From a virus, in IMG/VR virus record IMGVR_UViG_3300044837_000070, positions 1 to 42,905 of that record: a stretch of 42,905 bases of DNA; one strand, given 5' to 3'. The translations under genes and the position numbers were made by a program. Position 1 is the first letter of the stretch; each line of letters opens with the position of its first letter. The notes beneath the pieces are model-generated. The model saw only the letters and a list, made by a program, of their open reading frames with translations. It ran no database searches and had not been told where the DNA came from. Shown one piece after another: positions 1 to 42,905 of this stretch.

Positions 1-300
1 ACAGCATCGCCTACAGCACCGCCTACAGCACCGCCTACAGCATCGCGTACAGCACCGCCTACAGCACCGCGTACAGCATCGTCTACAGCACCGCCTATAG
101 CACCGCGTACAGCACCGCCTACAGCACCGCGTACAGCATCGTCTACAGCACCGTCTACAGCACCGTCTACAGCATCGTCTACAGCATCGCCTACAGCACC
201 GCCTACAGCACCGCCTATAGCACCGCCTATAGCACCGCCTACAGCATCGTCTACAGCACCGCCTACAGCACCGCGTATAGCACCGTCTACAGCATCGTCT
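1..300 (-). repeat. 12-nt tandem repeat array, 25 complete units (plus-strand consensus AYAGCAYCGYST), coding on the minus strand
   Basis: Read directly: 25 head-to-tail 12-mers fill 1-300 exactly. Only unit positions 2, 7, 10 and 11 vary. Same unit, strand and phase as the array at 42540-42905. Confidence 0.97.
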
Positions 301-548
301 TTTTTATTCAGATCGTTGATTAACTTGCTTGCAACTGGTGCAGCAAACGCCGCGACGATCGGTGACTGAACCCGAACGATCACTTTGGGTTGTGCCAGAC
401 CTGCCTTTTCGTAGGCTATCTTTACGGCTTTCTCGAATGTTTCCCAATCGGCCTCTCCAGTCTTTAAGCCAATGGCGATCCACTTATCTCGCCACTCCGC
501 AAACCTAGCTTCCTGCTCAGGGGTTAGTTTGTCTATTCTCTTTGCCAT
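1..548 (-). CDS. Tetrapeptide-repeat protein, 5' part (ATG at 548; ORF runs off the left edge and continues in frame at 42905)
   Basis: Hand translation from ATG 548-546: MAKRIDKLTPEQEARFAEWRDKWIAIGLKTGEADWETFEKAVKIAYEKAGLAQPKVIVRVQSPIVAAFAAPVASKLINDLNKK, then (G/D/R)(G/D)A(V/I) x25 with no stop down to position 1. Absent from the ORF track because it is open at the edge. The start lies 1 nt after the upstream stop (TAAcATG). Confidence 0.85.
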   Translation of the reverse strand, partial: MAKRIDKLTPEQEARFAEWRDKWIAIGLKTGEADWETFEKAVKIAYEKAGLAQPKVIVRVQSPIVAAFAAPVASKLINDLNKKDDAVDGAIRGAVGGAVDDAVGGAIGGAIGGAVGGAVGDAVDDAVDGAVDGAVDDAVRGAVGGAVRGAIGGAVDDAVRGAVGGAVRDAVGGAVGGAVGDA

Positions 549-549
549 G

Positions 550-870
550 TTAGTCCTTAACAGATTCGATTAATCGAGTAAATGGATTATATTCCGTGTC
601 GTGGAAACGTTTGTAGATTCCTTTACTAATCTTTAAATCTTTGTGGCGATCAACCTGTTTCTTGTGTACTAAACTCGTAGGGTTAGTAATGACGAAAAAC
701 ACCTCATCACCGTCGACGATTAGATCAAACCCTTTTGCTGATTCAAGAACGTGATTGTGCCCCGTCTCTGAGTGTCCAACAATATAGCTCTTTAGTGTCT
801 CTCGTTTACCTCCGGGTGCTGTCTCTACAGGGACAAGCATACATTCGCCGTGCCTAATTGGTTTGTTCAT
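550..870 (-). CDS. Conserved small phage protein, function unknown
   Basis: 106-aa track ORF, tightly packed (TAATG overlap at 870). The pattern RHGECMLVPV...GHSETGHNH resembles a recurrent small phage protein family whose name I cannot give. Confidence 0.75.
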   Translation of the reverse strand: MNKPIRHGECMLVPVETAPGGKRETLKSYIVGHSETGHNHVLESAKGFDLIVDGDEVFFVITNPTSLVHKKQVDRHKDLKISKGIYKRFHDTEYNPFTRLIESVKD

Positions 871-1235: not shown

Positions 1236-1880
1236 TCACCCTTGGGCCTCCAGCTTATCTTTTAGTTCATTATAGTGTTGGTTGGTCTTAACTAGTTTCA
1301 ATCGGTTATTGATGGCTGCAGGAGTATATGATGAGTTCTCTAACATCTCTCTCAGTTCTAGAATTTGGTCTGGGGTAACTGGGGAGTCGAATGGTTCTTC
1401 AAACTTGCCTTTTGGTTTCTCGTCCATGAAGCTATCTACCACTGGGGGGCTTTTCTTGTACTCAGGGGTCTTTATCGAGTTATCTCGGCTATCTGCGTCC
1501 TTAGTGTTGTCAATTAAGAACAAACCACCAGCCGCGTACTTACGAGCGTATGAAGAACACGAACCCGTTAGTTGAGCGTCGTCCATCTTCGCTTTCGGGC
1601 TTATAGCCTCACGAGCGTAAGCACACTTGCGAATCTCGTCAACCCCATCTGATAAGATGGCCCAGGCTTTTACGTAAACCCTTCCTTCGATACCAATAAT
1701 CTCGTCCTCAAAGGTTAAGGTTAAATTATGTTCAAATAAGAATGGTTTAACTTTATCTTCAATATCCTCTAGGTTTCGGTATACGAACCCTCCAAAGTCA
1801 TTAGTAATATCTTTCGGCACTTTGAGTCTGTGTTGTATATTCACGAGACGATCGTGCAACGTCATTGGTTCTTCGTTCAT
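1236..1880 (-). CDS. erf: ERF-family single-strand annealing recombinase
   Basis: 214 aa. N-terminal LHDRLVNIQ..L.VPKDITNDFGGFVYRNLEDIEDKVKPFL and central DDAQLTGSCSSYARKYAAGGLFLID match ERF hallmarks from memory. First gene behind a strong promoter. Confidence 0.8.
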   Translation of the reverse strand: MNEEPMTLHDRLVNIQHRLKVPKDITNDFGGFVYRNLEDIEDKVKPFLFEHNLTLTFEDEIIGIEGRVYVKAWAILSDGVDEIRKCAYAREAISPKAKMDDAQLTGSCSSYARKYAAGGLFLIDNTKDADSRDNSIKTPEYKKSPPVVDSFMDEKPKGKFEEPFDSPVTPDQILELREMLENSSYTPAAINNRLKLVKTNQHYNELKDKLEAQG

Positions 1881-2238: not shown

Positions 2239-2359
2239 CCATTAAATAGATCAGATGGCAAATGATGTGGAATGCACAATACTACTAAGGATAGGCGAAA
2301 AATAATCTATTACTCTCTTCACTTTCCTGCCTTTGGTATGGTAATATTAACTTAACCGA

Positions 2360-2454
2360 AACGTCTTCACTTTGCAACGCGGAGACCGAGTAGGGGGTAT
2401 TTAACAGGGATAAAAGAAACCCGAGGTTTCCCTCGGGCAACGTCTTCACTTTGC
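2360..2454. repeat. Two perfect 16-nt direct repeats AACGTCTTCACTTTGC (2360-2375, 2439-2454) flanking a hairpin
   Basis: Read directly; spacing 79 nt. The core TCTTCACTTT also occurs at 2316-2325, where it contains the orphan GTG start. Confidence 0.9.
2411..2438 (-). terminator. Intrinsic terminator on the minus strand (CCCGAGG-GAAA-CCTCGGG then TTTCTTTTA)
   Basis: Perfect 7-bp GC-rich stem 2420-2426/2431-2437 with a 4-nt loop, followed by a U-rich tract on the minus strand. Confidence 0.65.
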
Positions 2455-2461
2455 TGTCTTA

Positions 2462-2490
2462 ATGATATCAAATGATCCTGATGAATGCAA
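2462..2490 (-). promoter_or_regulatory. Sigma70-like promoter TTGCAT-17 nt-TATCAT
   Basis: Minus strand reads TTGCAT TCATCAGGATCATTTGA TATCAT. The predicted start near 2455 coincides with the first 16-nt repeat, and the terminator follows about 20 nt later. Confidence 0.55.
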
Positions 2491-2580
2491 GCATTATTCC
2501 TAAGACCACAGCTGAGTTTTAGGCGTTAAACGAATACATAACTAGTTCGGGTTTATTCCCTATTGAAAGGATTATTAGAT

Positions 2581-2880
2581 ATGGCCACAAGTACAGCAGA
2601 CATCCTAGGAGATCATAGGATCAAAGGAAGTTTAAATATCCTAAATCCTAAGAATCCTATGAATAAATCAAGTAGTCAGGTGGATAACATGGTGGAATAC
2701 CTGGTGCAGAAATTCGGCTCGGCCGAAACTCACCTACCCTTTTATAGGAAAGCATCCTGGATGCTACCAGACGACACGATTAGGAGGCTTGTAGCGGCCG
2801 CATCGGAAAAGAAAGCGAATAACCCACGTGGGTACTTTGTGGCCTGTGTGAAACACGAGAAAGCGTATTATGGCAACTAA
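2581..2880 (+). CDS. Hypothetical protein A (99 aa); C-terminal half resembles DnaD/replisome-organizer-type DNA-binding tails
   Basis: The track ORF starts at TTG 2563. ATG 2581 has AAAGGA 9 nt upstream and is preferred. The similarity (AAASEKKANNPRGYFVACVKHE) is a weak recollection only. Confidence 0.7.
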   Translation: MATSTADILGDHRIKGSLNILNPKNPMNKSSSQVDNMVEYLVQKFGSAETHLPFYRKASWMLPDDTIRRLVAAASEKKANNPRGYFVACVKHEKAYYGN

Positions 2881-2899
2881 GCTGACAGGAGGATAAGTA

Positions 2900-3196
2900 A
2901 TGAAGATAGTGGAGATAGATGAAAACGTCAACAATAGGCTGGACGTTATAAAGCAACATGGCCTCGATAACTACGGCACCCCTATAATTACCTACGCGTT
3001 TGCAAACGGGAAGATATCTGTCGTAGCACAGGGGAATCAGCTCAACCCGAAACAGGGTTACTCTTTCGTTAAGATATACAACAAATTTGACGCTAGCCGT
3101 AACGGTGCCTGGAACTTCAGCCTTGAATACATGGACATAATGGCAGAGATTGTCGAGGATATTAGGAAGACAAATAGTTCACTGCAGATCGACTGA
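2900..3196 (+). CDS. Hypothetical protein B (98 aa)
   Basis: Strong RBS (GGAGGATAAGTA before ATG), 19 nt after gene A, followed by a terminator. Confidence 0.8.
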   Translation: MKIVEIDENVNNRLDVIKQHGLDNYGTPIITYAFANGKISVVAQGNQLNPKQGYSFVKIYNKFDASRNGAWNFSLEYMDIMAEIVEDIRKTNSSLQID

Positions 3197-3213
3197 CCTA
3201 CGCTATATGTAGC

Positions 3214-3242
3214 AAAAAAGAGGCTTTTTCGGCCTCTTTTTG
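3214..3242. terminator. Bidirectional intrinsic terminator between convergent genes
   Basis: AAAAAGAGGC-TTTTTCG-GCCTCTTTTT: a GC core stem extended by A/T runs on both sides. It lies between the stop of B (3196) and the stop of C (3314). Confidence 0.8.
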
Positions 3243-3313
3243 TATTGGAATGGTAGTCCGCCTCTGTTAATTAACGTCGCACAACATTTATTTTACGATC
3301 CATCACTACACTA

Positions 3314-3592
3314 CTATAGAACCCAGTCAACGAAGCCATTTATAAGGAGTTTTATGGTGTCAAAATGAGTCAGCATGACGACTATTAATATTAATACCAG
3401 TAAGGGCCACGCGAGACCGACGACAGCTCCACCAATCAGGGCGGGGAGCCATCCGAAGAGCAGCCCGAATAGTAACCCCCATTGAGTGATCGCGTAGAGC
3501 CAAACACAGAGGAACCCTATGGCTCCAACAATTGCAGCACCAATAAGATACTCGGTTAGGCCACTCTTAGTGTCTTTACCTTTCACTGACAA
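3314..3592 (-). CDS. Integral membrane protein C (92 aa, about 3 TM segments)
   Basis: Hydrophobic stretches LIGAAIVGAIGFLCVWLYAI, WGLLFGLLFGWLPALIGGAVVGL and LLVLILIVVML. Its start overlaps the end of D by 10 nt. Confidence 0.8.
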   Translation of the reverse strand: MSVKGKDTKSGLTEYLIGAAIVGAIGFLCVWLYAITQWGLLFGLLFGWLPALIGGAVVGLAWPLLVLILIVVMLTHFDTIKLLINGFVDWVL

Positions 3593-3792
3593 TTATCCCC
3601 GATGTACCGGCTCTCGTAATCTTTCTGTTTAATACCTCTGACCGAAGTGTCCGGATACTGGTCGATCGGGTAGGCATCGACGCTCGCATTGAGTGCAGCT
3701 GTTCTGCAGGAGTTGTCTTGAGTAGCCTGGTAGCTTATGAACACAATGAGGGCGAGCAAAAGGATACCAGCAACCGTCCAGACTTTACTCAT
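3583..3792 (-). CDS. Small N-terminally anchored membrane/exported protein D (69 aa)
   Basis: N-terminal TM (VWTVAGILLLALIVFISY) then a polar domain with two Cys. Overlaps E by 8 nt. Confidence 0.75.
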   Translation of the reverse strand: MSKVWTVAGILLLALIVFISYQATQDNSCRTAALNASVDAYPIDQYPDTSVRGIKQKDYESRYIGDNCQ

Positions 3793-4270
3793 AATGACTA
3801 GTATCTACCCCCACATATTTGCCCAGGTTTATCCATGTCCTAACCTTATCTTCACCCCTGGTGAGCATAGCATTGAAGCAATAAGAAATGTTCTGGCCGT
3901 TCCTAGTGCAGACATCATCCAAATATTTGAATGCCGTGACTCGTTCGGTATCTGTGAAGTATTGCGGTACCATCTGCATCATAGCCCTAATAGATGTTGC
4001 ATACGGGTCGGTGTCCCAACCATACTGTATGATCAGATCTTCGTTTGTTGGTGTTGTTGGTTCTTCTGCCTTCTGAACAGGCGCAGGGGCTGTTTTAGAG
4101 GCTTCTGGAGCCGGTTCGGCTACTTGTGCCACTCTGGATTCGATAGGTGCCTGTGGGGCTTCTGGTGAGGTCACGATGTTCTCCTTCGGTTGGTTCAAAG
4201 CGAAGAGTGTCGTGGTGGCTGCACCAGCGACGATGACTGATATGGATGCGATGATTATTACTCTCTTCAC
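3785..4270 (-). CDS. N-terminally anchored protein E (161 aa) with a Pro/Ala-rich linker and a Cys-containing C-terminal domain
   Basis: GTG start at 4270 behind AGGCAGGAAA. TM segment IIIASISVIVAGAATTTLFAL, then PEAPQAPIES...APAPVQKAEEPTTP. This copy lacks the native promoter seen at 6251-6279. Confidence 0.75.
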   Translation of the reverse strand: MKRVIIIASISVIVAGAATTTLFALNQPKENIVTSPEAPQAPIESRVAQVAEPAPEASKTAPAPVQKAEEPTTPTNEDLIIQYGWDTDPYATSIRAMMQMVPQYFTDTERVTAFKYLDDVCTRNGQNISYCFNAMLTRGEDKVRTWINLGKYVGVDTSHYE

Positions 4271-4307
4271 TTTCCTGCCTTTGGTATGGTAATATTAACT
4301 TAACCGA

Positions 4308-4402
4308 AACGTCTTCACTTTGCAACGCGGAGACCGAGTAGGGGGTATTTAACAGGGATAAAAGAAACCCGAGGTTTCCCTCGGGCAACGTCTTCACTTT
4401 GC
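4308..4402. repeat. Copy 2 of the 16-nt direct-repeat pair (4308-4323, 4387-4402)
   Basis: Identical to 2360-2454 at offset 1,948. Confidence 0.9.
4359..4386 (-). terminator. Copy 2 of the minus-strand intrinsic terminator
   Basis: Identical to 2411-2438. Here it lies between the TTGCAT promoter and gene E copy 1. Confidence 0.65.
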
Positions 4403-4409
4403 TGTCTTA

Positions 4410-4438
4410 ATGATATCAAATGATCCTGATGAATGCAA
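4410..4438 (-). promoter_or_regulatory. Copy 2 of promoter TTGCAT-17-TATCAT
   Basis: Identical to 2462-2490. It is the only recognisable promoter upstream of the E-D-C copy at 4270-3314. Confidence 0.55.
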
Positions 4439-4528
4439 GCATTATTCCTAAGACCACAGCTGAGTTTTAGGCGTTAAACGAATACATAACTAGTTCGGGT
4501 TTATTCCCTATTGAAAGGATTATTAGAT

Positions 4529-4828
4529 ATGGCCACAAGTACAGCAGACATCCTAGGAGATCATAGGATCAAAGGAAGTTTAAATATCCTAAATCCTAAG
4601 AATCCTATGAATAAATCAAGTAGTCAGGTGGATAACATGGTGGAATACCTGGTGCAGAAATTCGGCTCGGCCGAAACTCACCTACCCTTTTATAGGAAAG
4701 CATCCTGGATGCTACCAGACGACACGATTAGGAGGCTTGTAGCGGCCGCATCGGAAAAGAAAGCGAATAACCCACGTGGGTACTTTGTGGCCTGTGTGAA
4801 ACACGAGAAAGCGTATTATGGCAACTAA
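4529..4828 (+). CDS. Hypothetical protein A, duplicate copy
   Basis: Translation identical to 2581-2880. Confidence 0.7.
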   Translation: MATSTADILGDHRIKGSLNILNPKNPMNKSSSQVDNMVEYLVQKFGSAETHLPFYRKASWMLPDDTIRRLVAAASEKKANNPRGYFVACVKHEKAYYGN

Positions 4829-4847
4829 GCTGACAGGAGGATAAGTA

Positions 4848-5144
4848 ATGAAGATAGTGGAGATAGATGAAAACGTCAACAATAGGCTGGACGTTATAAA
4901 GCAACATGGCCTCGATAACTACGGCACCCCTATAATTACCTACGCGTTTGCAAACGGGAAGATATCTGTCGTAGCACAGGGGAATCAGCTCAACCCGAAA
5001 CAGGGTTACTCTTTCGTTAAGATATACAACAAATTTGACGCTAGCCGTAACGGTGCCTGGAACTTCAGCCTTGAATACATGGACATAATGGCAGAGATTG
5101 TCGAGGATATTAGGAAGACAAATAGTTCACTGCAGATCGACTGA
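4848..5144 (+). CDS. Hypothetical protein B, duplicate copy
   Basis: Translation identical to 2900-3196. Confidence 0.8.
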   Translation: MKIVEIDENVNNRLDVIKQHGLDNYGTPIITYAFANGKISVVAQGNQLNPKQGYSFVKIYNKFDASRNGAWNFSLEYMDIMAEIVEDIRKTNSSLQID

Positions 5145-5161
5145 CCTACGCTATATGTAGC

Positions 5162-5190
5162 AAAAAAGAGGCTTTTTCGGCCTCTTTTTG
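5162..5190. terminator. Bidirectional terminator, duplicate copy
   Basis: Identical to 3214-3242. Confidence 0.8.
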
Positions 5191-5261
5191 TATTGGAATG
5201 GTAGTCCGCCTCTGTTAATTAACGTCGCACAACATTTATTTTACGATCCATCACTACACTA

Positions 5262-5540
5262 CTATAGAACCCAGTCAACGAAGCCATTTATAAGGAGTTT
5301 TATGGTGTCAAAATGAGTCAGCATGACGACTATTAATATTAATACCAGTAAGGGCCACGCGAGACCGACGACAGCTCCACCAATCAGGGCGGGGAGCCAT
5401 CCGAAGAGCAGCCCGAATAGTAACCCCCATTGAGTGATCGCGTAGAGCCAAACACAGAGGAACCCTATGGCTCCAACAATTGCAGCACCAATAAGATACT
5501 CGGTTAGGCCACTCTTAGTGTCTTTACCTTTCACTGACAA
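5262..5540 (-). CDS. Membrane protein C, duplicate copy
   Basis: Translation identical to 3314-3592. Confidence 0.8.
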   Translation of the reverse strand: MSVKGKDTKSGLTEYLIGAAIVGAIGFLCVWLYAITQWGLLFGLLFGWLPALIGGAVVGLAWPLLVLILIVVMLTHFDTIKLLINGFVDWVL

Positions 5541-5740
5541 TTATCCCCGATGTACCGGCTCTCGTAATCTTTCTGTTTAATACCTCTGACCGAAGTGTCC
5601 GGATACTGGTCGATCGGGTAGGCATCGACGCTCGCATTGAGTGCAGCTGTTCTGCAGGAGTTGTCTTGAGTAGCCTGGTAGCTTATGAACACAATGAGGG
5701 CGAGCAAAAGGATACCAGCAACCGTCCAGACTTTACTCAT
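5531..5740 (-). CDS. Membrane/exported protein D, duplicate copy
   Basis: Translation identical to 3583-3792. Confidence 0.75.
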   Translation of the reverse strand: MSKVWTVAGILLLALIVFISYQATQDNSCRTAALNASVDAYPIDQYPDTSVRGIKQKDYESRYIGDNCQ

Positions 5741-6218
5741 AATGACTAGTATCTACCCCCACATATTTGCCCAGGTTTATCCATGTCCTAACCTTATCTT
5801 CACCCCTGGTGAGCATAGCATTGAAGCAATAAGAAATGTTCTGGCCGTTCCTAGTGCAGACATCATCCAAATATTTGAATGCCGTGACTCGTTCGGTATC
5901 TGTGAAGTATTGCGGTACCATCTGCATCATAGCCCTAATAGATGTTGCATACGGGTCGGTGTCCCAACCATACTGTATGATCAGATCTTCGTTTGTTGGT
6001 GTTGTTGGTTCTTCTGCCTTCTGAACAGGCGCAGGGGCTGTTTTAGAGGCTTCTGGAGCCGGTTCGGCTACTTGTGCCACTCTGGATTCGATAGGTGCCT
6101 GTGGGGCTTCTGGTGAGGTCACGATGTTCTCCTTCGGTTGGTTCAAAGCGAAGAGTGTCGTGGTGGCTGCACCAGCGACGATGACTGATATGGATGCGAT
6201 GATTATTACTCTCTTCAC
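5733..6218 (-). CDS. Anchored protein E, duplicate copy (GTG start at 6218)
   Basis: Same GTG and RBS as copy 1. The track extension to ATG 6260 would begin upstream of the -10 box at 6251-6256, so the shorter form is preferred. Confidence 0.75.
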   Translation of the reverse strand: MKRVIIIASISVIVAGAATTTLFALNQPKENIVTSPEAPQAPIESRVAQVAEPAPEASKTAPAPVQKAEEPTTPTNEDLIIQYGWDTDPYATSIRAMMQMVPQYFTDTERVTAFKYLDDVCTRNGQNISYCFNAMLTRGEDKVRTWINLGKYVGVDTSHYE

Positions 6219-6250
6219 TTTCCTGCCTTTGGTATTAATTGATAACAGAG

Positions 6251-9450: not shown

Positions 9451-9828
9451 ATGGCTCTAGTGCCCGTAGGTGACAAAGTAAAGGTTTTGGTAGCGAAGGA
9501 TCAATTTGGTCTGAAATCTAACAGTGGAGCCCAACATGGCACAGTAGTAGCTGTGCCAGAAGATATATTATACTTTGGTTTTCACTCATTCGGTTTCGAT
9601 AACTCACTTGGCAATAAGGAAGTGTCCAAATCAATCCAGGAATATTATAGTAACTTCCTTGGGAAGATTGTATTCTGGGAAGAATTACAAGACCGAGGTC
9701 GTAGGTTCCAAGATGGGGAAGAAGAGTTCGTACTATTGAATATGTCTGATATTATTGCTTACGAAGAAAATGAAGAAACAACTGCTTATCTGATCCAGGA
9801 TGTGCGATCAGGTGGATTTAAGGTCTAG
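9451..9828 (+). CDS. groES: GroES-like co-chaperonin (125 aa, longer than canonical GroES)
   Basis: N-terminal LVPVGDKVKVLV and C-terminal DGEEEFVLLNMSDIIAYE mirror GroES (GDRVLV ... DGEEYLIL.E.DILA). Directly upstream of the GroEL-like gene. Confidence 0.65.
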   Translation: MALVPVGDKVKVLVAKDQFGLKSNSGAQHGTVVAVPEDILYFGFHSFGFDNSLGNKEVSKSIQEYYSNFLGKIVFWEELQDRGRRFQDGEEEFVLLNMSDIIAYEENEETTAYLIQDVRSGGFKV

Positions 9829-9836
9829 GAGGACAG

Positions 9837-11438
9837 ATGGCTACACGTAAGGAAAACCGAGTTATTGTTAGAGATAAAGCAGCACGTGCGAAGATACTAG
9901 AAGGAGCCAGGGGAGTCTACCAGACTGTTGCTAGCACCTATGGTCCTAGAGGTATGAATGTTTTAATTGAACAGACCTTTGGACGCCCTGTAGTTACAAG
10001 GGATGGCGTGACGGTTGCCCGTGCTATCTACTTCTCTGATCGTGCTAAAAATGTCGGTGCTCAGGTCATCACTGAGGCGTCAGAAACCACTAATAGAATT
10101 GCAGGGGACGCTACAAGTGCCACGGCCGTTCTGAGTGGACATCTTTTAGAGAATAGTTATAGGGCTATAGATAACGGGATGCATCCGATGGATGTCAGTG
10201 CTATCTTGAAACGAGATCACGAACTTATCCTTGAAAGAATCGAAGAACTTGGGAGTCCTGTTAGTGAAGGCCAGCTTGAGCAAGTCGCTACGGTATCATC
10301 GGGAGACCCTCTCCTCGGAAGGTTAATCGCTGAAGCCATCGAGTATGTAGGGCCAGATGGCGGTATCATTTCTGAGAAGGCCCCTGTTAATTCAGTCGAA
10401 CGTGAGTATGTTGACGGATACTATATCCAGTCGGGTTTTGGAGCGCTACAGTCCGGTAAGAAAGAACTTATTGACCCAACAACTGTTGTGTGTATACGCC
10501 CCGTTAAATCGAGAGCTGACGCCTTTGAGTTGCTTGAGAACATTGCCAAAAGCTTAGGGATTCAGCCAGGATCTGGCGTTATTCCTCGAATACTGTTTAT
10601 CGGAAATATCGAGGAAGATGCATATGTTTCACTGGTAGACGCAATCAATAGAGGAGTCATTGATGGAGTTATTATTACACCTCCGCCTTCGTTTGGATCA
10701 ATGGCAAAAGAACTTCTCGAAGATATTGCTATTTACGCACGCTGCCAACCTATTACAGATATGACAAACATGAGAGAGTTTGATATTCGCTACCTTGGCT
10801 CAGTAGCCCGGGTTGTCTCTACTAAAGTGGAAGCTACGATCTTTGGCGATGGAGCCTCAGAGGATATCGACGTCCGTATCGCAGATATTAAAGAGGCTAT
10901 TAAACTCGAAGTCTCTGATCTCGTTATTGAACGTCTAAAAGATCGGGTGGCTAAGCTAGAAGGTAAGATTGCTCTTTTTAGGATTGGGGCTCCGACCGAC
11001 TCGGCTAAAGAGGAACTAGAATTCCGTGTTGAAGATGCTATTAACACCACAAGGGCGGCGGCTCAATCTGGTATTGTTGCTGGAGGAGGAGTAACTTTAC
11101 TAGAAGTCAGTAAGCTTCCTATTAGTGACATTTACAGAGAAGCGCTCAGATCTAATCTGAAACAACTCCTTATTAATGCCAATACCCGACATATAACCTA
11201 TAGAAAGTGGTACGAGTTCTGGAAACCTCGTGTAAGTGTAGATATTTCAGAACTATTGAATGCTCCGGTAGGGTACGGTATCAATCTACGCAAGAGTGAT
11301 GACCTGGTGGACATCATTAAGGATGGAGTTATTGACGCTAAGCTAGCTGCTCAACAGACTATTATTAACGCTACCGACTCGGTTGCCACTCTAATTACTA
11401 CTGATCGTGTGATTATATTTGAGGATGAAGAAAGATAA
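9837..11438 (+). CDS. groEL: GroEL-like group I chaperonin (533 aa)
   Basis: ARAKILEGA..V...V..TYGPRGMNV, PVVTRDGVTVA, AGDATSATAVLS (canonical AGDGTTTATVLA), VAGGGVTLL and VIDAKLAAQQTI..A.SVATLITT are all collinear with GroEL. There is no GGM tail. Confidence 0.9.
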   Translation: MATRKENRVIVRDKAARAKILEGARGVYQTVASTYGPRGMNVLIEQTFGRPVVTRDGVTVARAIYFSDRAKNVGAQVITEASETTNRIAGDATSATAVLSGHLLENSYRAIDNGMHPMDVSAILKRDHELILERIEELGSPVSEGQLEQVATVSSGDPLLGRLIAEAIEYVGPDGGIISEKAPVNSVEREYVDGYYIQSGFGALQSGKKELIDPTTVVCIRPVKSRADAFELLENIAKSLGIQPGSGVIPRILFIGNIEEDAYVSLVDAINRGVIDGVIITPPPSFGSMAKELLEDIAIYARCQPITDMTNMREFDIRYLGSVARVVSTKVEATIFGDGASEDIDVRIADIKEAIKLEVSDLVIERLKDRVAKLEGKIALFRIGAPTDSAKEELEFRVEDAINTTRAAAQSGIVAGGGVTLLEVSKLPISDIYREALRSNLKQLLINANTRHITYRKWYEFWKPRVSVDISELLNAPVGYGINLRKSDDLVDIIKDGVIDAKLAAQQTIINATDSVATLITTDRVIIFEDEER

Positions 11439-11683
11439 TGATACTGGCTTGGATTGTATCAGTCCTGGCCTCCCTCGCTATAGGAAGTATAGTAGGGTTT
11501 AGATATAGAGAACTGCGAGACTCTATGTCTAAAATCCTTGAGACTCTTAAAGAGAAGGCCGATAAAAAGTCTTCTGTGGAAAGTAATACAAGTGCCCTCA
11601 TAGATCCTTACTCGCCCCTCTATCAGGCTCAGGAAGAACACGAAAAACTAATGGAACGCCTGAATCCAGGCTCTAAGAAGTGA
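11438..11683 (+). CDS. Small N-terminally anchored membrane protein (81 aa)
   Basis: Start overlaps the groEL stop (ATAATG). One TM segment (ILAWIVSVLASLAIGSIVGF). Confidence 0.65.
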   Translation: MILAWIVSVLASLAIGSIVGFRYRELRDSMSKILETLKEKADKKSSVESNTSALIDPYSPLYQAQEEHEKLMERLNPGSKK

Positions 11684-11952
11684 TCTGTACGAATTGTGGT
11701 AAAGAAACTGACGCTTTAAAGAGCATCATTGTTAAAGGTGAGATCAAGTCTGGTTGTTCCTTTTGTCTGGGTTCTAACCTGCAAAAGGCCAATGATCGCT
11801 CCGCCAAATACTACAAGCAGGAGCAACAGAGGAAGTTCAAGAGAGAACTCGTCCAGCATGTTGATCAGAGAGAATTTATACAGGTCTACGGGGCAGAGAA
11901 AGCTCGTGAGAAGGGCTTTTCGGACGAAGACATAAGGAAATACTCTATTTAG
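11680..11952 (+). CDS. Small zinc-ribbon-like basic protein (90 aa)
   Basis: CTNCG...CSFC pair of Cys dyads. 4-nt overlap with the upstream gene. Confidence 0.6.
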   Translation: MICTNCGKETDALKSIIVKGEIKSGCSFCLGSNLQKANDRSAKYYKQEQQRKFKRELVQHVDQREFIQVYGAEKAREKGFSDEDIRKYSI

Positions 11953-18726: not shown

Positions 18727-19641
18727 TTAACCTATGCTTGGGTTAGGGGGATACATCCAAACGTTTCCTATACGAGAATCATCAGTGAATACCGAGCCCG
18801 TTTGAGAGCTGGCGTAATCTTGGTCACAGTCCTCTTGAAGTTTTTCAAACAATCCTCTGTAGTAAGTGGCTCGTGGCTCATTTCCCTTAGATGAGAAATA
18901 GTTCCCCAGCGCGTAGTACATAGGAGCATCAACATACTCTTGAGGAATAATAGATATTTGGCCTACCCTCCAATTCTGCCCACTACCCGTGTAGCCAACA
19001 AAAGCCGACTTTAAGATAAGTGTTGAAGGAGTTGGTACATCCACAATCTCATAGAAAGTGAGATCGGTAACACCTGTGATTTGAAACCAAAGCCCTCTCA
19101 TATTCTGGTTAAATATCCCAGTAGTAGCTGTGACGAGGGTATTCCCGTTCGTAACGGTCACTGTGGCGCTCGTAGAGGTGCTCGTAACGTCGTCTACCGA
19201 TAAATCAAAGTCCTGGGGCTGGTAATACAGTCTAAAGCCGTTAGTAACGTCCTGAGAAGGAATTGGCCATACTTGAAACTTATCATTGCCTAGAGACATG
19301 TACCACGAAGGCCAGTTGTTAGAGGTTCTATAAGAAACAATCTCACGCCAGCGGTGTTCGCTGCTGACCTCATCGAGAGGCCACGAATACGAAGTAGCCG
19401 TTGTCCCCCCTACTAATGAGGTTAGCCCTGTAATCCTTAAACAGTCTACAGGTGTTTGATAGATTGACTGGTTAACCTTAATATCAGTGAATTGTTGTTT
19501 GCGCGTATAATAACGGGCTAGTCGAGCGTTAAAGAGGTGATAACCAGTATTGTAGTCCTGTTGCAGTTGTTCAAGAGTACCAGGAGAGTTGTCTCTGGCT
19601 ATTCTTTGGGTTGAGTTCTGTACGTCCGTCCAGGTCTTCAT
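18727..19641 (-). CDS. Tail-associated structural protein (304 aa)
   Basis: Track ORF, TAATG-coupled to the fibre gene upstream. Confidence 0.55.
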   Translation of the reverse strand: MKTWTDVQNSTQRIARDNSPGTLEQLQQDYNTGYHLFNARLARYYTRKQQFTDIKVNQSIYQTPVDCLRITGLTSLVGGTTATSYSWPLDEVSSEHRWREIVSYRTSNNWPSWYMSLGNDKFQVWPIPSQDVTNGFRLYYQPQDFDLSVDDVTSTSTSATVTVTNGNTLVTATTGIFNQNMRGLWFQITGVTDLTFYEIVDVPTPSTLILKSAFVGYTGSGQNWRVGQISIIPQEYVDAPMYYALGNYFSSKGNEPRATYYRGLFEKLQEDCDQDYASSQTGSVFTDDSRIGNVWMYPPNPSIG

Positions 19642-27951: not shown

Positions 27952-29025
27952 TTAGACACCTGTGATGCCGCTAATTTTAGCTGTTCGGTTAGGGTTCAGG
28001 CAGATCAAGTTACCGTACATAACGAAGATACCGACTTCAGCAAGTTGACCAACGGGTTGGATGTACTTGCGGAATTGGAAGGCCGAAACCTTGTACTTGT
28101 CGTATGCACCAGTCGTAACGGTCTCAGTCGTCGCAACCATATCAAGGGTATTGATTGGAAGTGAGCGGAATTGGAACCATTTCTCGTTGATGAACCACTG
28201 CGTACCTGCTGGAGCTTTTTGATCGCGGACGTAGTTCTTGCCTCGGAAGTCAACGCTGGTTGCGCCACCCTTAAGGTTAAGACCTGCACTCGCTTGTACT
28301 GGCTGTCCAACACCCGTTGAGCCGTTTGTGAACTCACCGCCCAATGCACCATAAGTGGCAAACTGTGAAGGAGTTAACAGGCTTGAGTAGTACGACCAAA
28401 CGGTAGGGTCGCTCAAGATCAAGTTAGTAGTCTCTGAGAGATCACCTGAAATTGTCGAGCCGTCGTCTGCCGCGTACATTGTCTCAAGATCGAGTGCTCC
28501 TGCTGGGGCACCGACTAGGAAGGCGTTAATAGTAGGAAAGGCTGATCGTGAAAGACCTGCGTAAGTAGAAGTCGAAGTACCGTCATCTACAATGTTTCCC
28601 AAACCATCAAAGTCATTACCCGTGCCGTATCCGTAGAAGATTTGGCCTAATGCGGTAATCATTGAGTTCTGCGCGTATTGGTATGAACCATCCGTCAGAT
28701 TAACGACACCTGCTGGAGTTTTGTTGATTGATTGTTCAATCAAGCTAACACCGACTGGTTGTGCGTATCCTGTTGGATACCAGGTGAACTTCTGGGTATT
28801 GAAGTCGATAGTTGTATCGAACGTTTCAGTCCCCTTAAAGCTACGACCTAAGTTAGAGTTGTTAGTAAAGATCGGAGCTTGGAAACTTCGGCCATTCCAG
28901 GGTTTTGGATTGGCGACGACTCGCTTCATAATCTCGCTCGATTTGTTTACGGTGTCAACGATACTAGAGTTAATGTCCTCTAAGGTGATGTTGTTGACCC
29001 TATCGTTCTGGGGCGTTGCTGCCAT
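27952..29025 (-). CDS. Major capsid protein (357 aa)
   Basis: Follows portal and scaffold in canonical order. Strong RBS (TAAGGAGAAAAGT) at the internal ATG 29025, which lies 24 codons inside the track ORF. The extension to 29097 would run through the leader hairpin. No fold-level evidence available. Confidence 0.6.
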   Translation of the reverse strand: MAATPQNDRVNNITLEDINSSIVDTVNKSSEIMKRVVANPKPWNGRSFQAPIFTNNSNLGRSFKGTETFDTTIDFNTQKFTWYPTGYAQPVGVSLIEQSINKTPAGVVNLTDGSYQYAQNSMITALGQIFYGYGTGNDFDGLGNIVDDGTSTSTYAGLSRSAFPTINAFLVGAPAGALDLETMYAADDGSTISGDLSETTNLILSDPTVWSYYSSLLTPSQFATYGALGGEFTNGSTGVGQPVQASAGLNLKGGATSVDFRGKNYVRDQKAPAGTQWFINEKWFQFRSLPINTLDMVATTETVTTGAYDKYKVSAFQFRKYIQPVGQLAEVGIFVMYGNLICLNPNRTAKISGITGV

Positions 29026-29065
29026 ACTTTTCTCCTTATATTTTAGGCTTCTATGGGGATTTTCT

Positions 29066-29133
29066 AATAAAAAAAGCGCCCCTGATAGGGCGGCCATTAG
29101 CTTAATAATAACGCAGGGTTATTAACTATGCAA
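29066..29133 (-). promoter_or_regulatory. Promoter (TTGCAT-17-TATTAT, 29105-29133), GCTAATGGC box, GC hairpin (29077-29092) and U-tract ahead of the capsid gene
   Basis: -35 at 29128-29133 and -10 at 29105-29110. GCTAATGGC at 29093-29101. Stem CGCCC/GGGCG, then CTTTTTTTATT, about 40 nt before ATG 29025. Confidence 0.6.
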
Positions 29134-30057: not shown

Positions 30058-32163
30058 TTACTGCGTTGGTACTGGTGGGGTAGCCTCTCCTGGCCCCGCT
30101 ACTGGTGCTGCGGTGGTCGAAAGTGCTATGTCAGGCGGCGGAGCCATACCAGGGACGCCTTGTGGTGGCACTCCTGAAGGCACTGGAGCTGTCGTGGGAG
30201 CTGTCGGAGTTATAGGAGCGGGCGAAGGTTGTACCATTCCCGCGTCGTCTATTAAGAGGGCTGTGAGGTTAGCAGTGTTTGTAGCTACGTGCTGGACAGC
30301 CATCAGGAATGCGGTGAGTTTCTCTTGAGCTTGGATGTCAAGCTTTTGGAATCTGTTGGAAGCCATGAATGAGTTGTAATAGTTGAGATAGTCAGCTGAA
30401 TAGTTGTCTCTCTCTTCAGGAACTTTGCCCATGATAAGGAGTTGTATATCTGCCTCAGCGTCGGTATTGATCTGATCCAATTCGATAGACTTAAGGTAAG
30501 CCTGTGGGTCAAGATTAGATTTCAGGTATCTCTCTGCTCGTATCTCAGGATCAGGAAGGCCCAGGTCTTGCATCAGCGTCAGGTAGTCAATGGCATTACC
30601 AGACTGCCACAGTTCCATTGCTGTTGAACGGATATTCTGCTTGTCTAATGGAAGAGTTGAATCGGTCTGAACACCAATTTTTACATTAGAGTCGATATTC
30701 TCACCATTCAAGAGGATAAAGGTATACTTCCCGTCTCCGCCTTTGCAAGCGAACCAATGGTCTTCTGCGTAGTAGACTCTCATCATCTGAAGCTTAATTT
30801 TGTAGTAGGTTTCAGCGGCATCTGAGATAGCTAGTACTAAATCGTCTTGCAAAGCCCCCGCTTGGTTCTTTACTAATAGATCCCGTGTCGCGGTATCTTG
30901 AGACTGTGGCTGTGCGCCCCTAAACTGAGCAGGAGTACCCATAATGTTATCAATCTCATTCCGGGCGTCGAACATCGTATTAACCGCGTAAGCGGGGAGT
31001 TCGCTTGAGCCGACGTTCACAAAGGCCTTAGAAATGTCGTCACCCTTAGCCATTAAGACCGTTCGAGCACCCTTATTAACTAGTTTTTGGGTGTCTTCTT
31101 CGTTGAAAGCGTCTTTGGAAGCAATATAACGGCCATTCACATAGTCAGCGTTCTCCATGATCTGACGGCCACGCTTGTTCAACATCTCTTGCTGGTCTCT
31201 GGCCTGTTCAAATAAGGACGTTTCATCAATATAAGACTCTCCCATGTTCATGTAATTAAACGGAACAAAAGGTTTAGGTGGCATTGAGAGTAGATTGGCC
31301 TCTTTTTCCTTCTTATCTGATCCCGTATATACCCAGTTAGGGTTGGGTTGTTTGTCTAAGATGATATCTTCATCAGGAAGAAACCAACAGACACCTTCTT
31401 TAGGCTTGCCGTTTTCTATATAAGTGAACCACGCCTCGAAGTAAGTAATAAATCGAGACATCTGTGTATAGCGTCCTTGGACAATTCCAAAAGCTTTTTT
31501 AATTTCGTCAGCCTTACCAGGGAATTTCATAATCAGTTCATCAACGGAGCAACGTAACCGGTGATAGATAACGTTAGGATTGTCTAGGTATTTAGCGTTC
31601 CTATCAATGATAATGTCTTCTGGGTTACAGACTTCTGTCACGACATCCCCATCATATCCAGCGTTGGGGTCCCATCGTAGCTTAAGGAAACCACGTTTAC
31701 GGATAATAAGGTTCATTGCCGCCGCTCTAAACTTACGATCTGCCTTCTCGTCTAGAGAGTGCTGGTAGAGGGCCATTTGCAAGTCCCTAGCGCCCTTTAT
31801 ATAGATTTCATCGCTCTTGCTAGGGGTTAATTCAGGCTTAGCCATCTGTCCTGTTGCGTAAGCTAGAATAGCCCTTACCGCTGTGAACAGGCGGTTGTCC
31901 TTATACCTAATATCGTATCGAGTATATTCGGAGTCGTTCAGCTGATCACCCAAAAAGAATGAGACATTGGCCTTATCGTTCTCTTCTAAGCTCCAGGGAG
32001 CTTGATTCCAGTGTGCTCTGTTCTCGTTTAAAGAAGTAACTAACATCTGTTTTAGTTTCTCATCAGGGAGGGTGAGGTTGAAAGTCTCGTAATCTTCGGG
32101 AGGAAGGTAGAGAGTAGAGAATCTCTCAGTATAAGCGTTTTGATCGCGTTGTCTTGGTTCCAC
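30058..32163 (-). CDS. Portal protein (701 aa)
   Basis: Large ORF immediately after TerL and a small gene. GTG start at 32163 with TGAGGA 9 nt upstream. Assignment by position and size. Confidence 0.6.
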   Translation of the reverse strand: MEPRQRDQNAYTERFSTLYLPPEDYETFNLTLPDEKLKQMLVTSLNENRAHWNQAPWSLEENDKANVSFFLGDQLNDSEYTRYDIRYKDNRLFTAVRAILAYATGQMAKPELTPSKSDEIYIKGARDLQMALYQHSLDEKADRKFRAAAMNLIIRKRGFLKLRWDPNAGYDGDVVTEVCNPEDIIIDRNAKYLDNPNVIYHRLRCSVDELIMKFPGKADEIKKAFGIVQGRYTQMSRFITYFEAWFTYIENGKPKEGVCWFLPDEDIILDKQPNPNWVYTGSDKKEKEANLLSMPPKPFVPFNYMNMGESYIDETSLFEQARDQQEMLNKRGRQIMENADYVNGRYIASKDAFNEEDTQKLVNKGARTVLMAKGDDISKAFVNVGSSELPAYAVNTMFDARNEIDNIMGTPAQFRGAQPQSQDTATRDLLVKNQAGALQDDLVLAISDAAETYYKIKLQMMRVYYAEDHWFACKGGDGKYTFILLNGENIDSNVKIGVQTDSTLPLDKQNIRSTAMELWQSGNAIDYLTLMQDLGLPDPEIRAERYLKSNLDPQAYLKSIELDQINTDAEADIQLLIMGKVPEERDNYSADYLNYYNSFMASNRFQKLDIQAQEKLTAFLMAVQHVATNTANLTALLIDDAGMVQPSPAPITPTAPTTAPVPSGVPPQGVPGMAPPPDIALSTTAAPVAGPGEATPPVPTQ

Positions 32164-32488: not shown

Positions 32489-34072
32489 TCAGGGGTCGAG
32501 CTCATTTAGTGTCTCAGATATCACATTTCCGAGCGACGTATCTCCGCTGACTTCAGACTTACTACTATCCGGCTCAATAAACAGACTCTCTGATCCTAAG
32601 ACTTTAGAAAGCCCTATACGATAGTAGGCAGTGGCAAAGGAATAGTCCGAGTTCTTGCCTTCTTTCTTGAGCCATTCCGATTTGGAACGTCCGTCATCCT
32701 TCTCGACAGTCGTTCGATAAAGATTCCCCCAGTCCGCGATGTACTCTTCTAGTTCGCTCGGATGCATCCTGAAAAGTAACTTGGCCTCAGTGATTTCACT
32801 GGCTACCATATCTAATAACCTCGTTCTATCAGCATTAACAGTTTGGCCCTTCCAGTTAACAATATGCATACCCTTCTGCTCTTGAAAGTAACACAGGTAA
32901 ACGTCATTATATTTATCGGCTAGCTGCTTAGGCTTGGTTGGATAAGGATTCGGGTCGATTACTACGATAGCCTTGTACATTAACTTCAATCTTTCAATCT
33001 CTTCCCACGACTCGTACTTCCCATAGGCGAAGATTCCATCAGGTGTCCCTACAACATATATCTGGTTGTTGACATTCTGATCCACTCCGATGACTACGTT
33101 CCTCTTGGGGATATTTGAAGGCGCACAAGCCCTTAGAATAGCCACGCGGTCTACGATCATGTCTGAAGGCGTATAGGCTTTCCCGATAACGAAGTTCATA
33201 AAGAAATCAATCGAAGACTCTTCGTATTGTTCAATGATCCTTCTAGCTGTTACCCAGGGAGCCATCATCTGAGAGATCCAGTAGCCATGTCTCTTCCGGT
33301 CGGGGTACTTAGTAACCCAGTGCCCCATCCTACGAGCCTCGTCACTTATCTCTTCACTACACGCCCCACAAGCATATATTCCCTTTGCCCTATCAACATA
33401 GTGACACCTTCCGTCTGGCTCCCAGTCCATGAACCAGTCGTGCCCACAGTGATCGCATTTGACGAACCAATGTCTCATATCCGACTCGTTATATAATCCG
33501 TCTACTCCAAAACCTACTTGTGAAGGATTAGAGAACCGCCACCGCTTAGGCCGCAAGCTCGCTTGCAAACGGGAGTCGAAAGTATTCACAACAGCCATAG
33601 AAGGCATACGATCGTATTCATCTATTACAAGGATATCTCCCGTAATAGAAATAGCCTCTCTGTCTGAGAAGCCACCTTTAAAGAATAGGTTCCTATCGCC
33701 TACTCGTTTATACGTAACAGAATCATCTTTTACAATTATATTGATTGCTGGGTTAGTCGAGATCAGAGGGTTAACCTTCGGTTTTACGAAGTCATTAACC
33801 ACGTTGTTAGTAGGAAGGGCGTAGATAACATTCCAGCCCCCATACTTAGCTTCCCAGATTGAACGAAGGATAGCGAAAACGGAGAAGCCTACTTGGGCTG
33901 ACTTACGACAAACGATATCGTCAGACTCATCAGCATAGATATCAATCATAAACCTATGGGAGTCGAACTCAATAAGTGACTGGTTCTCGTTCTTGAACTT
34001 ATTAAGGGTTATCCAGGCAAGGACTGATGAGGCTATGAGGTCTTCGTTTGTTGGTGTTTTAGCTATTGACAC
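32489..34072 (-). CDS. terL: Terminase large subunit, GpA-like
   Basis: 527 aa. N-terminal ATPase-like KSAQVGFS, acidic ILVIDEYD (Walker-B-like) and FVKCDHCGHDWFMDW ... CGACSEE, the Cys cluster I recall in lambda GpA-type terminases. GTG start with GAGGT upstream. Confidence 0.75.
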   Translation of the reverse strand: MSIAKTPTNEDLIASSVLAWITLNKFKNENQSLIEFDSHRFMIDIYADESDDIVCRKSAQVGFSVFAILRSIWEAKYGGWNVIYALPTNNVVNDFVKPKVNPLISTNPAINIIVKDDSVTYKRVGDRNLFFKGGFSDREAISITGDILVIDEYDRMPSMAVVNTFDSRLQASLRPKRWRFSNPSQVGFGVDGLYNESDMRHWFVKCDHCGHDWFMDWEPDGRCHYVDRAKGIYACGACSEEISDEARRMGHWVTKYPDRKRHGYWISQMMAPWVTARRIIEQYEESSIDFFMNFVIGKAYTPSDMIVDRVAILRACAPSNIPKRNVVIGVDQNVNNQIYVVGTPDGIFAYGKYESWEEIERLKLMYKAIVVIDPNPYPTKPKQLADKYNDVYLCYFQEQKGMHIVNWKGQTVNADRTRLLDMVASEITEAKLLFRMHPSELEEYIADWGNLYRTTVEKDDGRSKSEWLKKEGKNSDYSFATAYYRIGLSKVLGSESLFIEPDSSKSEVSGDTSLGNVISETLNELDP

Positions 34073-36629: not shown

Positions 36630-36890
36630 CTATTTGCTTTCACGTTTCGCCTTGTATGCTTCCCGCCCTTTGGCTTGAATTTCTCTCGCTAAGCTAGGAT
36701 CTATTGCTCCAAACCCTCTAGGAGTTTCGGTAAACCTTTTAGGGATATTACCCAGCTTTGAAAAGTGTTCGGGATCTTCCGCCTTCTGGCGTGCTGCCCT
36801 GGCTTTAGCACTCTGGCTGCGTTTACTCTTATAGAAGGTGACGTCTATAACGTCCTTCCGGCTTGCTTCGTGTGCTTGTTGTTTATTCAT
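36630..36890 (-). CDS. Small basic protein with a KGG/stress-protein-like motif
   Basis: PRGFGAIDPSLAREIQAKGREA resembles the RGFA.MDPE..REIASKGG repeat of small general-stress proteins. Weak recollection. Confidence 0.3.
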   Translation of the reverse strand: MNKQQAHEASRKDVIDVTFYKSKRSQSAKARAARQKAEDPEHFSKLGNIPKRFTETPRGFGAIDPSLAREIQAKGREAYKAKRESK

Positions 36891-40026: not shown

Positions 40027-40153
40027 GCGCCAACTCCTTGATGGCTTTTGCTGCATACTGAATTGGATCATTTAATACATGCTTCCCTCTACCAGCAGAC
40101 ACTCCTGCATCGTAGAGGTTCTTGAGAATTCTGAATAATTTAGAACCGTTCAT
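40013..40153 (-). CDS. Small early ORF (46 aa)
   Basis: RBS AGAGAGGACAA before ATG 40153. MNGSKLFRILKNLYDAGVSAGRGKHVLNDPIQYAAKAIKELAREDS. Ends 14 nt inside ninG. Confidence 0.45.
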   Translation of the reverse strand: MNGSKLFRILKNLYDAGVSAGRGKHVLNDPIQYAAKAIKELAREDS

Positions 40154-41830: not shown

Positions 41831-42905
41831 CTAGGCTTCTTGCTCGATTAGTAAGTAATCTTCTAGTGGGAGTGAGTTCCCCTGTTCATCTTGGTAGCCG
41901 TTAGCTGTAGCAAGGTCTGCGTCCCCCTTTGCCCCTACTTCGGGCGGAACGAACTTTATAAACTCACGAGGGGTAGAAGCATCTGTCATAACAAGGGCAT
42001 ACTCAGTTACCCCAGTCCCTCGGAAATCTTTACACTCGTATAGTCGATTGCCCTTAACACCCGTATGGATTAACTTAGCTTTGAGTCCTTTAAGCATTTC
42101 TTTTGAGCCTAGCATCGAGAAAGCAATCTCACGCTTATCTGAGTCTTTTATTTCCAAAACTTCTTCTGCTGTAATTTTCTGACTAACAATCTTTTTCCAC
42201 AATTCTACTTCGCCTTCTCCATCGAATCTTTCACCTCTTAAAGCGTGAAACCCCCATCCATCAGGCCATTCGATTGCTTGCCCTATTTCGGAATGTAATT
42301 GTCCCTGTTCGTTTCTTTGAATAATCGAGGGTCGGTTACAGACCATCACAAAGTTAGTATATGGATACCACCATGAGACAGATTTCGCAATATCTTGATA
42401 AGATTCAGCTCTTTCTTTTATGTCTATAGTTGTTTCAAGTCCTGCTACTTCTGTCATAAAACTTACATAGCTCGGTGAGCCTCGCCACCAACCACCAACC
42501 CAGAACTGGCCACCCAGACGGTTATACCAGCTGTTTTCTACAGCACCGTCTACAGCACCGCCTATAGCACCGCGTACAGCACCGTCTACAGCACCGCCTA
42601 CAGCATCGCGTACAGCATCGTCTACAGCACCGCCTACAGCACCGCCTACAGCACCGCGTACAGCACCGCCTACAGCACCGCCTATAGCACCGCCTATAGC
42701 ACCGCGTATAGCACCGTCTACAGCACCGCCTACAGCATCGCGTACAGCACCGCCTACAGCATCGTCTACAGCATCGTCTACAGCACCGTCTACAGCACCG
42801 TCTACAGCACCGCCTATAGCACCGCGTACAGCACCGTCTACAGCACCGCCTACAGCATCGCGTACAGCATCGTCTACAGCATCGCCTACAGCACCGCCTA
42901 CAGCA
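41831..42905 (-). CDS. Tetrapeptide-repeat protein, 3' part (enters from the right window edge; stop at 41831)
   Basis: The frame of track ORF 41831-42457 stays open upstream through ...AVENSWYNRLGGQFWVGGWWRGSPSYVSF-MTEV... and all 30.5 repeat units to 42905. The codon phase matches the fragment at 1-548. Confidence 0.85.
   Translation of the reverse strand, partial: AVGGAVGDAVDDAVRDAVGGAVDGAVRGAIGGAVDGAVDGAVDDAVDDAVGGAVRDAVGGAVDGAIRGAIGGAIGGAVGGAVRGAVGGAVGGAVDDAVRDAVGGAVDGAVRGAIGGAVDGAVENSWYNRLGGQFWVGGWWRGSPSYVSFMTEVAGLETTIDIKERAESYQDIAKSVSWWYPYTNFVMVCNRPSIIQRNEQGQLHSEIGQAIEWPDGWGFHALRGERFDGEGEVELWKKIVSQKITAEEVLEIKDSDKREIAFSMLGSKEMLKGLKAKLIHTGVKGNRLYECKDFRGTGVTEYALVMTDASTPREFIKFVPPEVGAKGDADLATANGYQDEQGNSLPLEDYLLIEQEA
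42540..42905 (-). repeat. 12-nt tandem repeat array, 30 complete units plus a 6-nt partial unit
   Basis: Units start at 42540+12k with the same consensus AYAGCAYCGYST and the same four variable positions as 1-300. Confidence 0.97.

Follow-up and report, generated by a model that had tools for sequence, protein, structure and literature searches.

The window (the whole stretch of DNA analysed, 42,905 nt) is the contig of a tailed phage of about 43 kb, on which large terminase, portal, major head protein and several DNA-metabolism genes were located (table 1). The genome is almost wholly coded on the minus strand, apart from a short plus-strand block (9451-11952) within which the GroEL-like gene lies. 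The SU10-type adaptor gives a hint of a podovirus-like virion module, and no tRNA was found in a tRNA search. An exact (100%) tandem duplication with a unit of 1,948 nt is present at 2308-6235 (2308-4255 equals 4256-6203, and the identity continues to 6235). The duplicated block holds about six ORFs, including some for small membrane-like proteins, and the duplication could be either real or an assembly artefact.

Table 1. Location of the repeat-containing gene and of other features in the window
Feature	Position	Strand	Remarks
Array, promoter-proximal part	1..299	-	24 complete units, plus one cut 1 nt short by the window edge; DDAV DGAI RGAV ... GDA
N-terminal domain, 83 aa (MAKRIDKLTPEQEARFAEWRDKW...LNKK)	300..548	-	ATG at 548-546; reads directly into the array
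106-aa ORF	550..870	-	Stop 2 nt from the DUF6745 start codon
Erf-like annealing protein	1236-1880		
GroEL-like chaperonin	9837-11438	+	phrog_5725, E = 2.5e-91
SU10-type adaptor	18727-19641	-	PF24175, E = 1.3e-12
Major head protein	27952-29097		
Portal	30058-32163		
Large terminase	32489-34072		
HNH endonuclease	36887-37687		
NinG/Rap	39610-40071		
C-terminal DUF6745 domain, 235 aa (ENSWYNRLGGQFWVGGWW...LLIEQEA)	41831..42538	-	Pfam PF20530; stop at 41831-41833
Array, distal part	42539..42905	-	Half unit and 30 complete units; the ...DGAV end abuts the C-domain
Terminal overlap	42876..42905	.	Last 30 nt identical to nt 1-30; within the array, probably from circular closure or a terminal overlap

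Tandem Repeats Finder reported period-12 repeats at 1-294 (24.5 copies, 87% matches) and 42538-42905 (30.7 copies, 88% matches), and no other tandem array in the whole window; the 12-nt unit is confined to these regions. The two blocks form one array in one minus-strand gene, which runs from 548 down to 1 and then from 42905 down to 41831. The contig is probably circular and was linearised or broken inside the repeat, which is why the gene lies in two parts. Given unit composition and phase, the chance of the 30-nt match between the ends is about 0.0015, and joining the ends preserves the reading frame with a 30-nt overlap, with a 6-nt overlap or with none. If the 30-nt closure is right, the array has about 53 units. 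A reading made from the sequence alone (hereafter the sequence-only reading) had counted 25 and 30 units plus a half in two blocks. These counts agree with ours at the nucleotide level, and both blocks are present as described, but they belong to a single array.

The joined protein thus consists of the N-domain, an array ([G/D/R][G/D]A[V/I])n with n of about 53-55 as assembled, and the C-domain. The match to PF20530 (DUF6745) covers residues 336-458 of this protein (57.9 bits against a gathering cut-off of 27, E = 1.1e-15). The N-domain (also given as MAKRIDKLTPEQEARF...LNKK), whose open frame continues through the array off position 1, is kept in all full-length members of the family and is predicted with high confidence to be helical. 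The gene is located among small early-type ORFs in the early/recombination region, between Erf and NinG/Rap. The 106-aa ORF next to it is also found directly upstream of the homologous gene in six related contigs (L008, L017, L021, L022, L023, and L040). Its family occurs on many contigs of 35-56 kb (35 matches with 46-64% identity, the window's own copy P0187 excepted) and gave no match in Pfam or PHROG. It is possible that this ORF encodes a functional partner of the DUF6745 protein.

Read on the minus strand in the frame set by the flanking protein, the units of the array have the form [GGC/GAC/CGC][GGT/GAT]GCT[GTA/ATA]. Coding-strand unit positions 3, 4, 6, 7, 8, 9, 11, and 12 are constant in all 54 complete units, and the remaining four are each biallelic (position 1, G42/C12; position 2, G36/A18; position 5, G39/A15; position 10, G45/A9). 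All four variable sites are non-synonymous and no wobble position varies, as the sequence-only reading had stated. Nine unit types occur: GGAV (19), DDAV (9), DGAV (7), RDAV, RGAI, and RGAV (4 each), GGAI (3), DGAI (2), and GDAV (2 complete and one truncated at position 1); these numbers match those reported before, save for the truncated unit. The GC content of the array is 60% vs. 45.6%, and the longest exact internal repeat reported for it is 91 nt.

The order of units is strongly non-random. A GG unit follows each of the 12 Arg units (0/100,000 shuffles), and a block of 7 units is repeated 21 units downstream. With regard to the first residue of adjacent units, D is followed by R eight times and R is never followed by D. 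The Arg-then-GG rule was not seen in other arrays (e.g., L011 and L012), and thus it probably records block duplication in the lineage of the window. The earlier remark that Ile never occurs together with Asp at the second position describes the array correctly, but its significance is marginal (hypergeometric P = 0.040, uncorrected).

Several known types of repeats were compared with this array. CRISPR arrays have unique spacers, whereas the 12-mers here are arranged head to tail with none between them. Pentapeptide, collagen, and heptad repeats have periods of 5, 3, and 7 residues, whereas the period in the window is 12 nt or 4 residues. The Gly-zipper_OmpA family (PF13436) scored 26.1 bits against a gathering cut-off of 27, and Gly is absent from homologous arrays. 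A target of a diversity-generating retroelement was also considered and rejected: no reverse transcriptase was detected among the ORFs that were scanned (a part of all ORFs), no template repeat was found, the coding strand has G/A and G/C at the variable sites, and the unit occurs in the array only.

The contrast of dozens of non-synonymous differences with no synonymous ones had been offered as a sign of selection. This contrast counts cells rather than events and is pseudo-replicated: four point mutations, together with unit duplication and chimeric units, account for the whole window array, and the probability that all four miss the wobble positions is C(8,4)/C(12,4) = 0.14. Thus, the window alone is not decisive, and selection is unproven by its array. 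One alternative is that a neutral and very recent slippage expansion from a few unit variants produced the array, the non-synonymous bias being due to chance. The small number of mutational events needed is compatible with this, the block duplications and rigid unit order indicate recent growth, and the relative with the most similar N-domain (P0006, 81% identity to that of the window) holds an array of 7 units. Under neutral turnover, wobble sites should vary at equal density or more.

To compare codon positions, we analyzed the arrays of related phages. Of the polymorphic sites in 22 arrays (minor allele seen at least twice), 70 fell on a first or second codon position and 5 on a wobble position; nearly all of the variation within arrays was located in one or two variable residues. 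In 21 non-redundant arrays with edge units trimmed, the mean unit diversity was 0.346 at the first and second positions of the two variable codons (63/84 site-arrays polymorphic), 0.026 at wobble positions (5/84), and 0.013 at the first and second positions of the constant codons (4/84). Diversity was higher at variable codons than at wobble positions in 21/21 arrays (sign test, p = 4.8e-7), which are not fully independent, as arrays of related phages may share ancestral polymorphism. Synonymous polymorphism was observed in five arrays (L013, L017, L020, L024, and L031). The sequence-only reading had named ordinary synonymous variation in homologous arrays as evidence against its view, and such variation is mostly lacking.

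The silent sites that are uniform within an array differ between arrays: the majority base is C, T, or G at position 3, C or T at position 6, G, T, A, or C at position 9, and T, C, G, or A at position 12. In the flanking domains, on the other hand, fourfold sites have reached saturation among the nearest relatives available, with matching third bases in 26-40% of conserved codons. Saturated flanks together with uniform silent sites within each array indicate that each array was homogenised or rebuilt well after the lineages split. The wobble variation predicted by neutral turnover is not seen, suggesting selection for variety, and a single mutational hot spot is an unlikely cause, given that each of the four bases is found at variable positions in one lineage or another. 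A chance origin of the bias is therefore improbable, considering that it recurs in all 21 arrays with different codon signatures and also in the cultured, Sanger-sequenced mycobacteriophage Tweety. Judged from sequence comparison, the pattern is one of concerted evolution with maintained hypervariable codons.

The interpretation first put forward, i.e., homogenisation with selection or shuffling of units, is in this respect partly supported at the sequence level. It appears to be largely right because of the comparison with relatives, in which wobble bases differ between arrays and the bias is general, and not because of the window array, which would be insufficient. Its suggestion of selection on charged positions does not hold, as the variable residues of relatives include W, Y, H, S, N, V, E, and K.

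The layout of the window protein (an LTxEQ-type N-domain, a short-period array, and the C-domain) is the norm of the family. It was also found in homologues retrieved with the C-domain alone, and PF20530 is present in homologues. A search of 1.84 billion representatives revealed 3,185 clusters matching DUF6745 at E <= 1e-3. At least 94 of the 186 retrieved proteins, which include many fragments, contain four period-4 units or more, with a maximum of 63. Members are present in phages including Microcystis phage LMM01 and GenBank MW202476, and a literature search for DUF6745 yielded no paper naming the family. In one further contig (L037, GCA_037024555.1, 3676-4716 and 6001-6657), an ArdA anti-restriction gene is followed, 1.3 kb downstream, by a gene with a DUF6745-like C-domain; this neighbourhood is phage-like, with a terminase, and is the single example of an anti-defence setting.

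Array length in the family ranges from 2 to at least 100 units, and the window member has one of the longest arrays seen. The shortest was found in P0008 (2-3 units) and the longest in JAEHJW020005244.1 (L025/L034, 36,762 nt), where 26 and 74 units lie at the two contig ends; in the window, too, the array is at both ends. The codon signature of the latter, GGC-GGT-GCT-GTA, is identical to that of the window though the flanking domains are strongly diverged; this likeness, also seen in L024 and L031, came from searching for that signature and is not evidence of array transfer. The constant pair is mostly AV, and QV, SV, AT, xSSL, or SQLx were found elsewhere. Ala-Val is kept across lineages via different codons (GCT GTA, GCG GTT, GCG GTC, GCC GTT, GCA GTT, and GCT GTG), and the variable residues across the family comprise, besides those listed above, G, D, and R. 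One homologue (L040, 3823-4914; ENA k141_432916, 43,775 nt) carries in the same place an array of 9-nt units encoding a tripeptide, SA[R/W/G] x24, in which a single nucleotide position varies. Its C-terminus is nearly the same and its N-domain is different, and a member of the same 106-aa ORF family adjoins it. A Logan contig with the same gene (L041) ends within the tripeptide array.

A role of the 12-mers as DNA was also considered, in which they would act as origin iterons or as a packaging or recombination site and the protein periodicity would be a by-product. It is known that ori-lambda is located inside gene O, and the array in the window adjoins Erf and other DNA-metabolism genes and forms a GC spike. 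The preservation of Ala-Val through different codons indicates a constraint at the protein level, the motifs of other family members are wholly different, and neither a GC-skew turning point at the array nor an AT-rich block beside it was found. We regard such a role as highly improbable.

AlphaFold2 predicted the N- and C-domains with confidence (block means mostly 77-95). The array was drawn as helices at low pLDDT: for the window protein most values were under 50, and for P0010 the block means were 37-59. In principle, the array may form a periodic fold, such as an alpha-helical stalk or a glycine-zipper-like helix with an Ala/Val stripe, whose two variable residues would provide a recognition surface, a repeat-variable di-residue code resembling that of TALE repeats or the hypervariable sites in WD40 repeats of fungal NLRs. 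Besides the predicted helices, the diversifying pattern at variable codons and the near-threshold glycine-zipper match are in line with such a fold. Across 62 arrays, acid(i)-base(i+4) pairs are enriched (64 vs. 48.7 +/- 5.1, z = +3.0) and base-base pairs are depleted (57 vs. 76.6 +/- 6.1, z = -3.2), a statistic that is inflated by non-independent duplicated blocks and is weakly informative. On the other hand, pLDDT stays below 50-60 across the array in both models, an exact period of 4 is by geometric reasoning unsuited to a canonical coiled-coil seam, and neither period nor Gly content is conserved (SA[R/W/G] in one homologue, and xSSL, xxQV, xxSV, or SQLx in others). That arrays with either 3 or 4 residues per unit can occupy one site in the protein speaks against a fixed periodic fold and for a tunable spacer or low-complexity surface. 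A single fixed periodic fold, together with the recognition surface it would offer, is thus unlikely.

Searches by sequence against PDB, Pfam, NCBIfam, and PADLOC, and Foldseek searches of two models against PDB, gave no match that would assign an activity to the DUF6745 protein. Foldseek matches in BFVD were solely to other DUF6745 proteins.

Arrays of this family differ even between contigs whose flanks are identical. Three contigs (L035, L003, and L002) share 2.5-3 kb of flank at 100% identity, and their arrays differ in unit number and order: compared with the fully bridged 13-unit array of L035 (43,985-nt contig), that of L003 is longer by two DGAV-RDAV blocks, and the units of L002 are ordered differently. 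True hypervariability, misassembly of short reads, or a combination of the two could account for these differences. In at least eight related contigs, the sequence breaks off within the array. It has been reported that Podospora HIC repeats are not recovered by Illumina assemblies (PMC12222747; PMC4986451). Considering this published failure and the possibility of misassembly, the unit count (53-55) and order of the window array should be regarded as provisional. More generally, DUF6745 arrays are a recurrent break point in phage assemblies of about 40 kb, and long reads are needed before the length and order given in an assembly can be relied upon.

A stronger claim would be that the printed feature is an assembly artefact, i.e., that short-read assembly through an existing repeat produced the unit number and order given here, and possibly the 30-nt closure as well. 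Both contig ends lie within the array, the longest exact internal repeat is 91 nt, and the broken contigs and identical-flank differences, the published experience with such repeats, and the exact 1,948-nt duplication, which hints at assembly problems, point in this direction. However, an artefact cannot generate the codon-position pattern. Moreover, arrays are fully bridged in L005, L007-L013, and L035 and in cultured Tweety, and the arrays of L009 and L016, which come from different assemblies, are identical over 219 nt. We therefore give this explanation very little weight.

The phenomenon itself is already known in kind, and the absence of precedent suggested by the sequence-only reading was mistaken. 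In gp54 of mycobacteriophage Tweety, the minimal unit is 12 bp with invariant Ala-Ala codons and a GC spike; third positions are invariant, and the first and second positions of the other two codons vary (Pham et al. 2007, PMC2884959). There are 48 copies in Tweety gp54, 26 in Che8 gp57, and 15 in PMC gp51, and the authors judged the pattern to be "consistent with selection for variation" (PMC2884959). We confirmed the codon-position pattern on the DNA of EF536069. The window array is similar in that its in-frame unit of 12 bp encodes two invariant and two variable residues, with third positions invariant, and in that it lies, with a GC spike, between unique N- and C-terminal regions of a non-structural early-region gene whose copy number varies in relatives. 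They differ in the unit (AA[G/W/Q][S/Y] there and [G/D/R][G/D]A[V/I] here) and in host lineage. In addition, the function of gp54 has been tested, whereas that of DUF6745 is suggested by analogy: a later review (PMC9262239, citing Dedrick et al. 2017) describes gp54 as a counter-defence against Phrann gp29/gp30 that is "tunable" by mutation. No homology between gp54 and DUF6745 was found, as gp54 had no Pfam match and hhalign gave a probability of 0.4%. Tweety gp54 is an analogue and no detectable homologue of DUF6745, and the analogy could be superficial.

Other repeat arrays show partial likeness. The circumsporozoite protein, a eukaryotic surface antigen at the host-parasite interface, contains a long tetrapeptide array with major and minor units, which is a beta-turn-type repeat. 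The window array is likewise long and tetrapeptide with major and minor unit types, a likeness by description; the repeat types in Plasmodium falciparum are NANP and NVDP (PMC12494720). The HIC repeats of fungal NLR proteins (het-d/het-e WD40 of Podospora; PMC12222747; PMC4986451) share concerted evolution, hypervariable codons, and length polymorphism with the arrays described here; in the fungal genes, unequal recombination keeps the units alike and diversifying selection acts on those codons. The window array and its relatives fit the HIC traits of near-identical units by concerted evolution and of a few hypervariable codons with excess non-synonymous variation. The fungal units are of 42 aa or similar, folded, and part of a beta-propeller sensor, whereas the unit here has 4 aa (3 in one homologue) and belongs to a phage protein with no NLR domain and an array of low pLDDT in place of folded WD40, ANK, or TPR repeats. 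VR2 in bbp36 of Bordetella phage BMP-1 is described as an in-frame tandem repeat of 9-20 copies in a non-essential gene of unknown role; unlike the window array, it is a 24-bp element with spacer variants (PMC2884959).

What is new here is, first, that the signature is the rule in a large and unstudied phage family; second, that this signature outlasts changes from lineage to lineage in the constant residues, in the variable ones, and even in the period; and third, that the arrays are a systematic assembly break point. The best explanation as a whole, which we hold to be fairly likely, is that the array is the repeat core of a split gene, undergoes concerted evolution with hypervariable sites, and may serve as a tunable spacer. 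Replication slippage or unequal recombination among 12-nt units or multi-unit blocks would expand, contract, and homogenise the array, and the frame is never lost because unit length is a multiple of three. Purifying selection would keep the Ala-Val pair, while selection may retain or renew variety at the other two residues. By analogy, the array may be a spacer tunable in length and composition that sets the juxtaposition of the N- and C-domains.

On the same analogy, the DUF6745 protein might be an accessory early protein in phage-host conflict, as repeat number tunes the counter-defence of Tweety gp54. That it is a tunable host-interaction or counter-defence protein is a tentative suggestion. 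Equally tentative is a broader form of it, in which DUF6745, found in thousands of clusters mostly on phage contigs of about 35-55 kb, would be a second, independently evolved and far wider class of mutationally tunable host-interaction or counter-defence proteins, with the 106-aa ORF as its partner. Slippage in a 9- or 12-nt in-frame array would then alter the length of the spacer as well as its small set of variable residues, and the protein would thereby be re-tuned against host systems.

The cross-array comparison provides a clean and assembly-independent case of concerted evolution with hypervariable codons in which the unit has only four residues. If the analogy with gp54 holds, it would offer a first testable hypothesis for DUF6745, and in-frame arrays with uniform silent sites and variable residue sites would flag rapidly tunable genes of phage-host conflict from sequence alone. 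If the broader suggestion is true, the single case of Tweety gp54 would be an instance of a strategy general among phages, in which an anti-defence gene contains a contingency locus.
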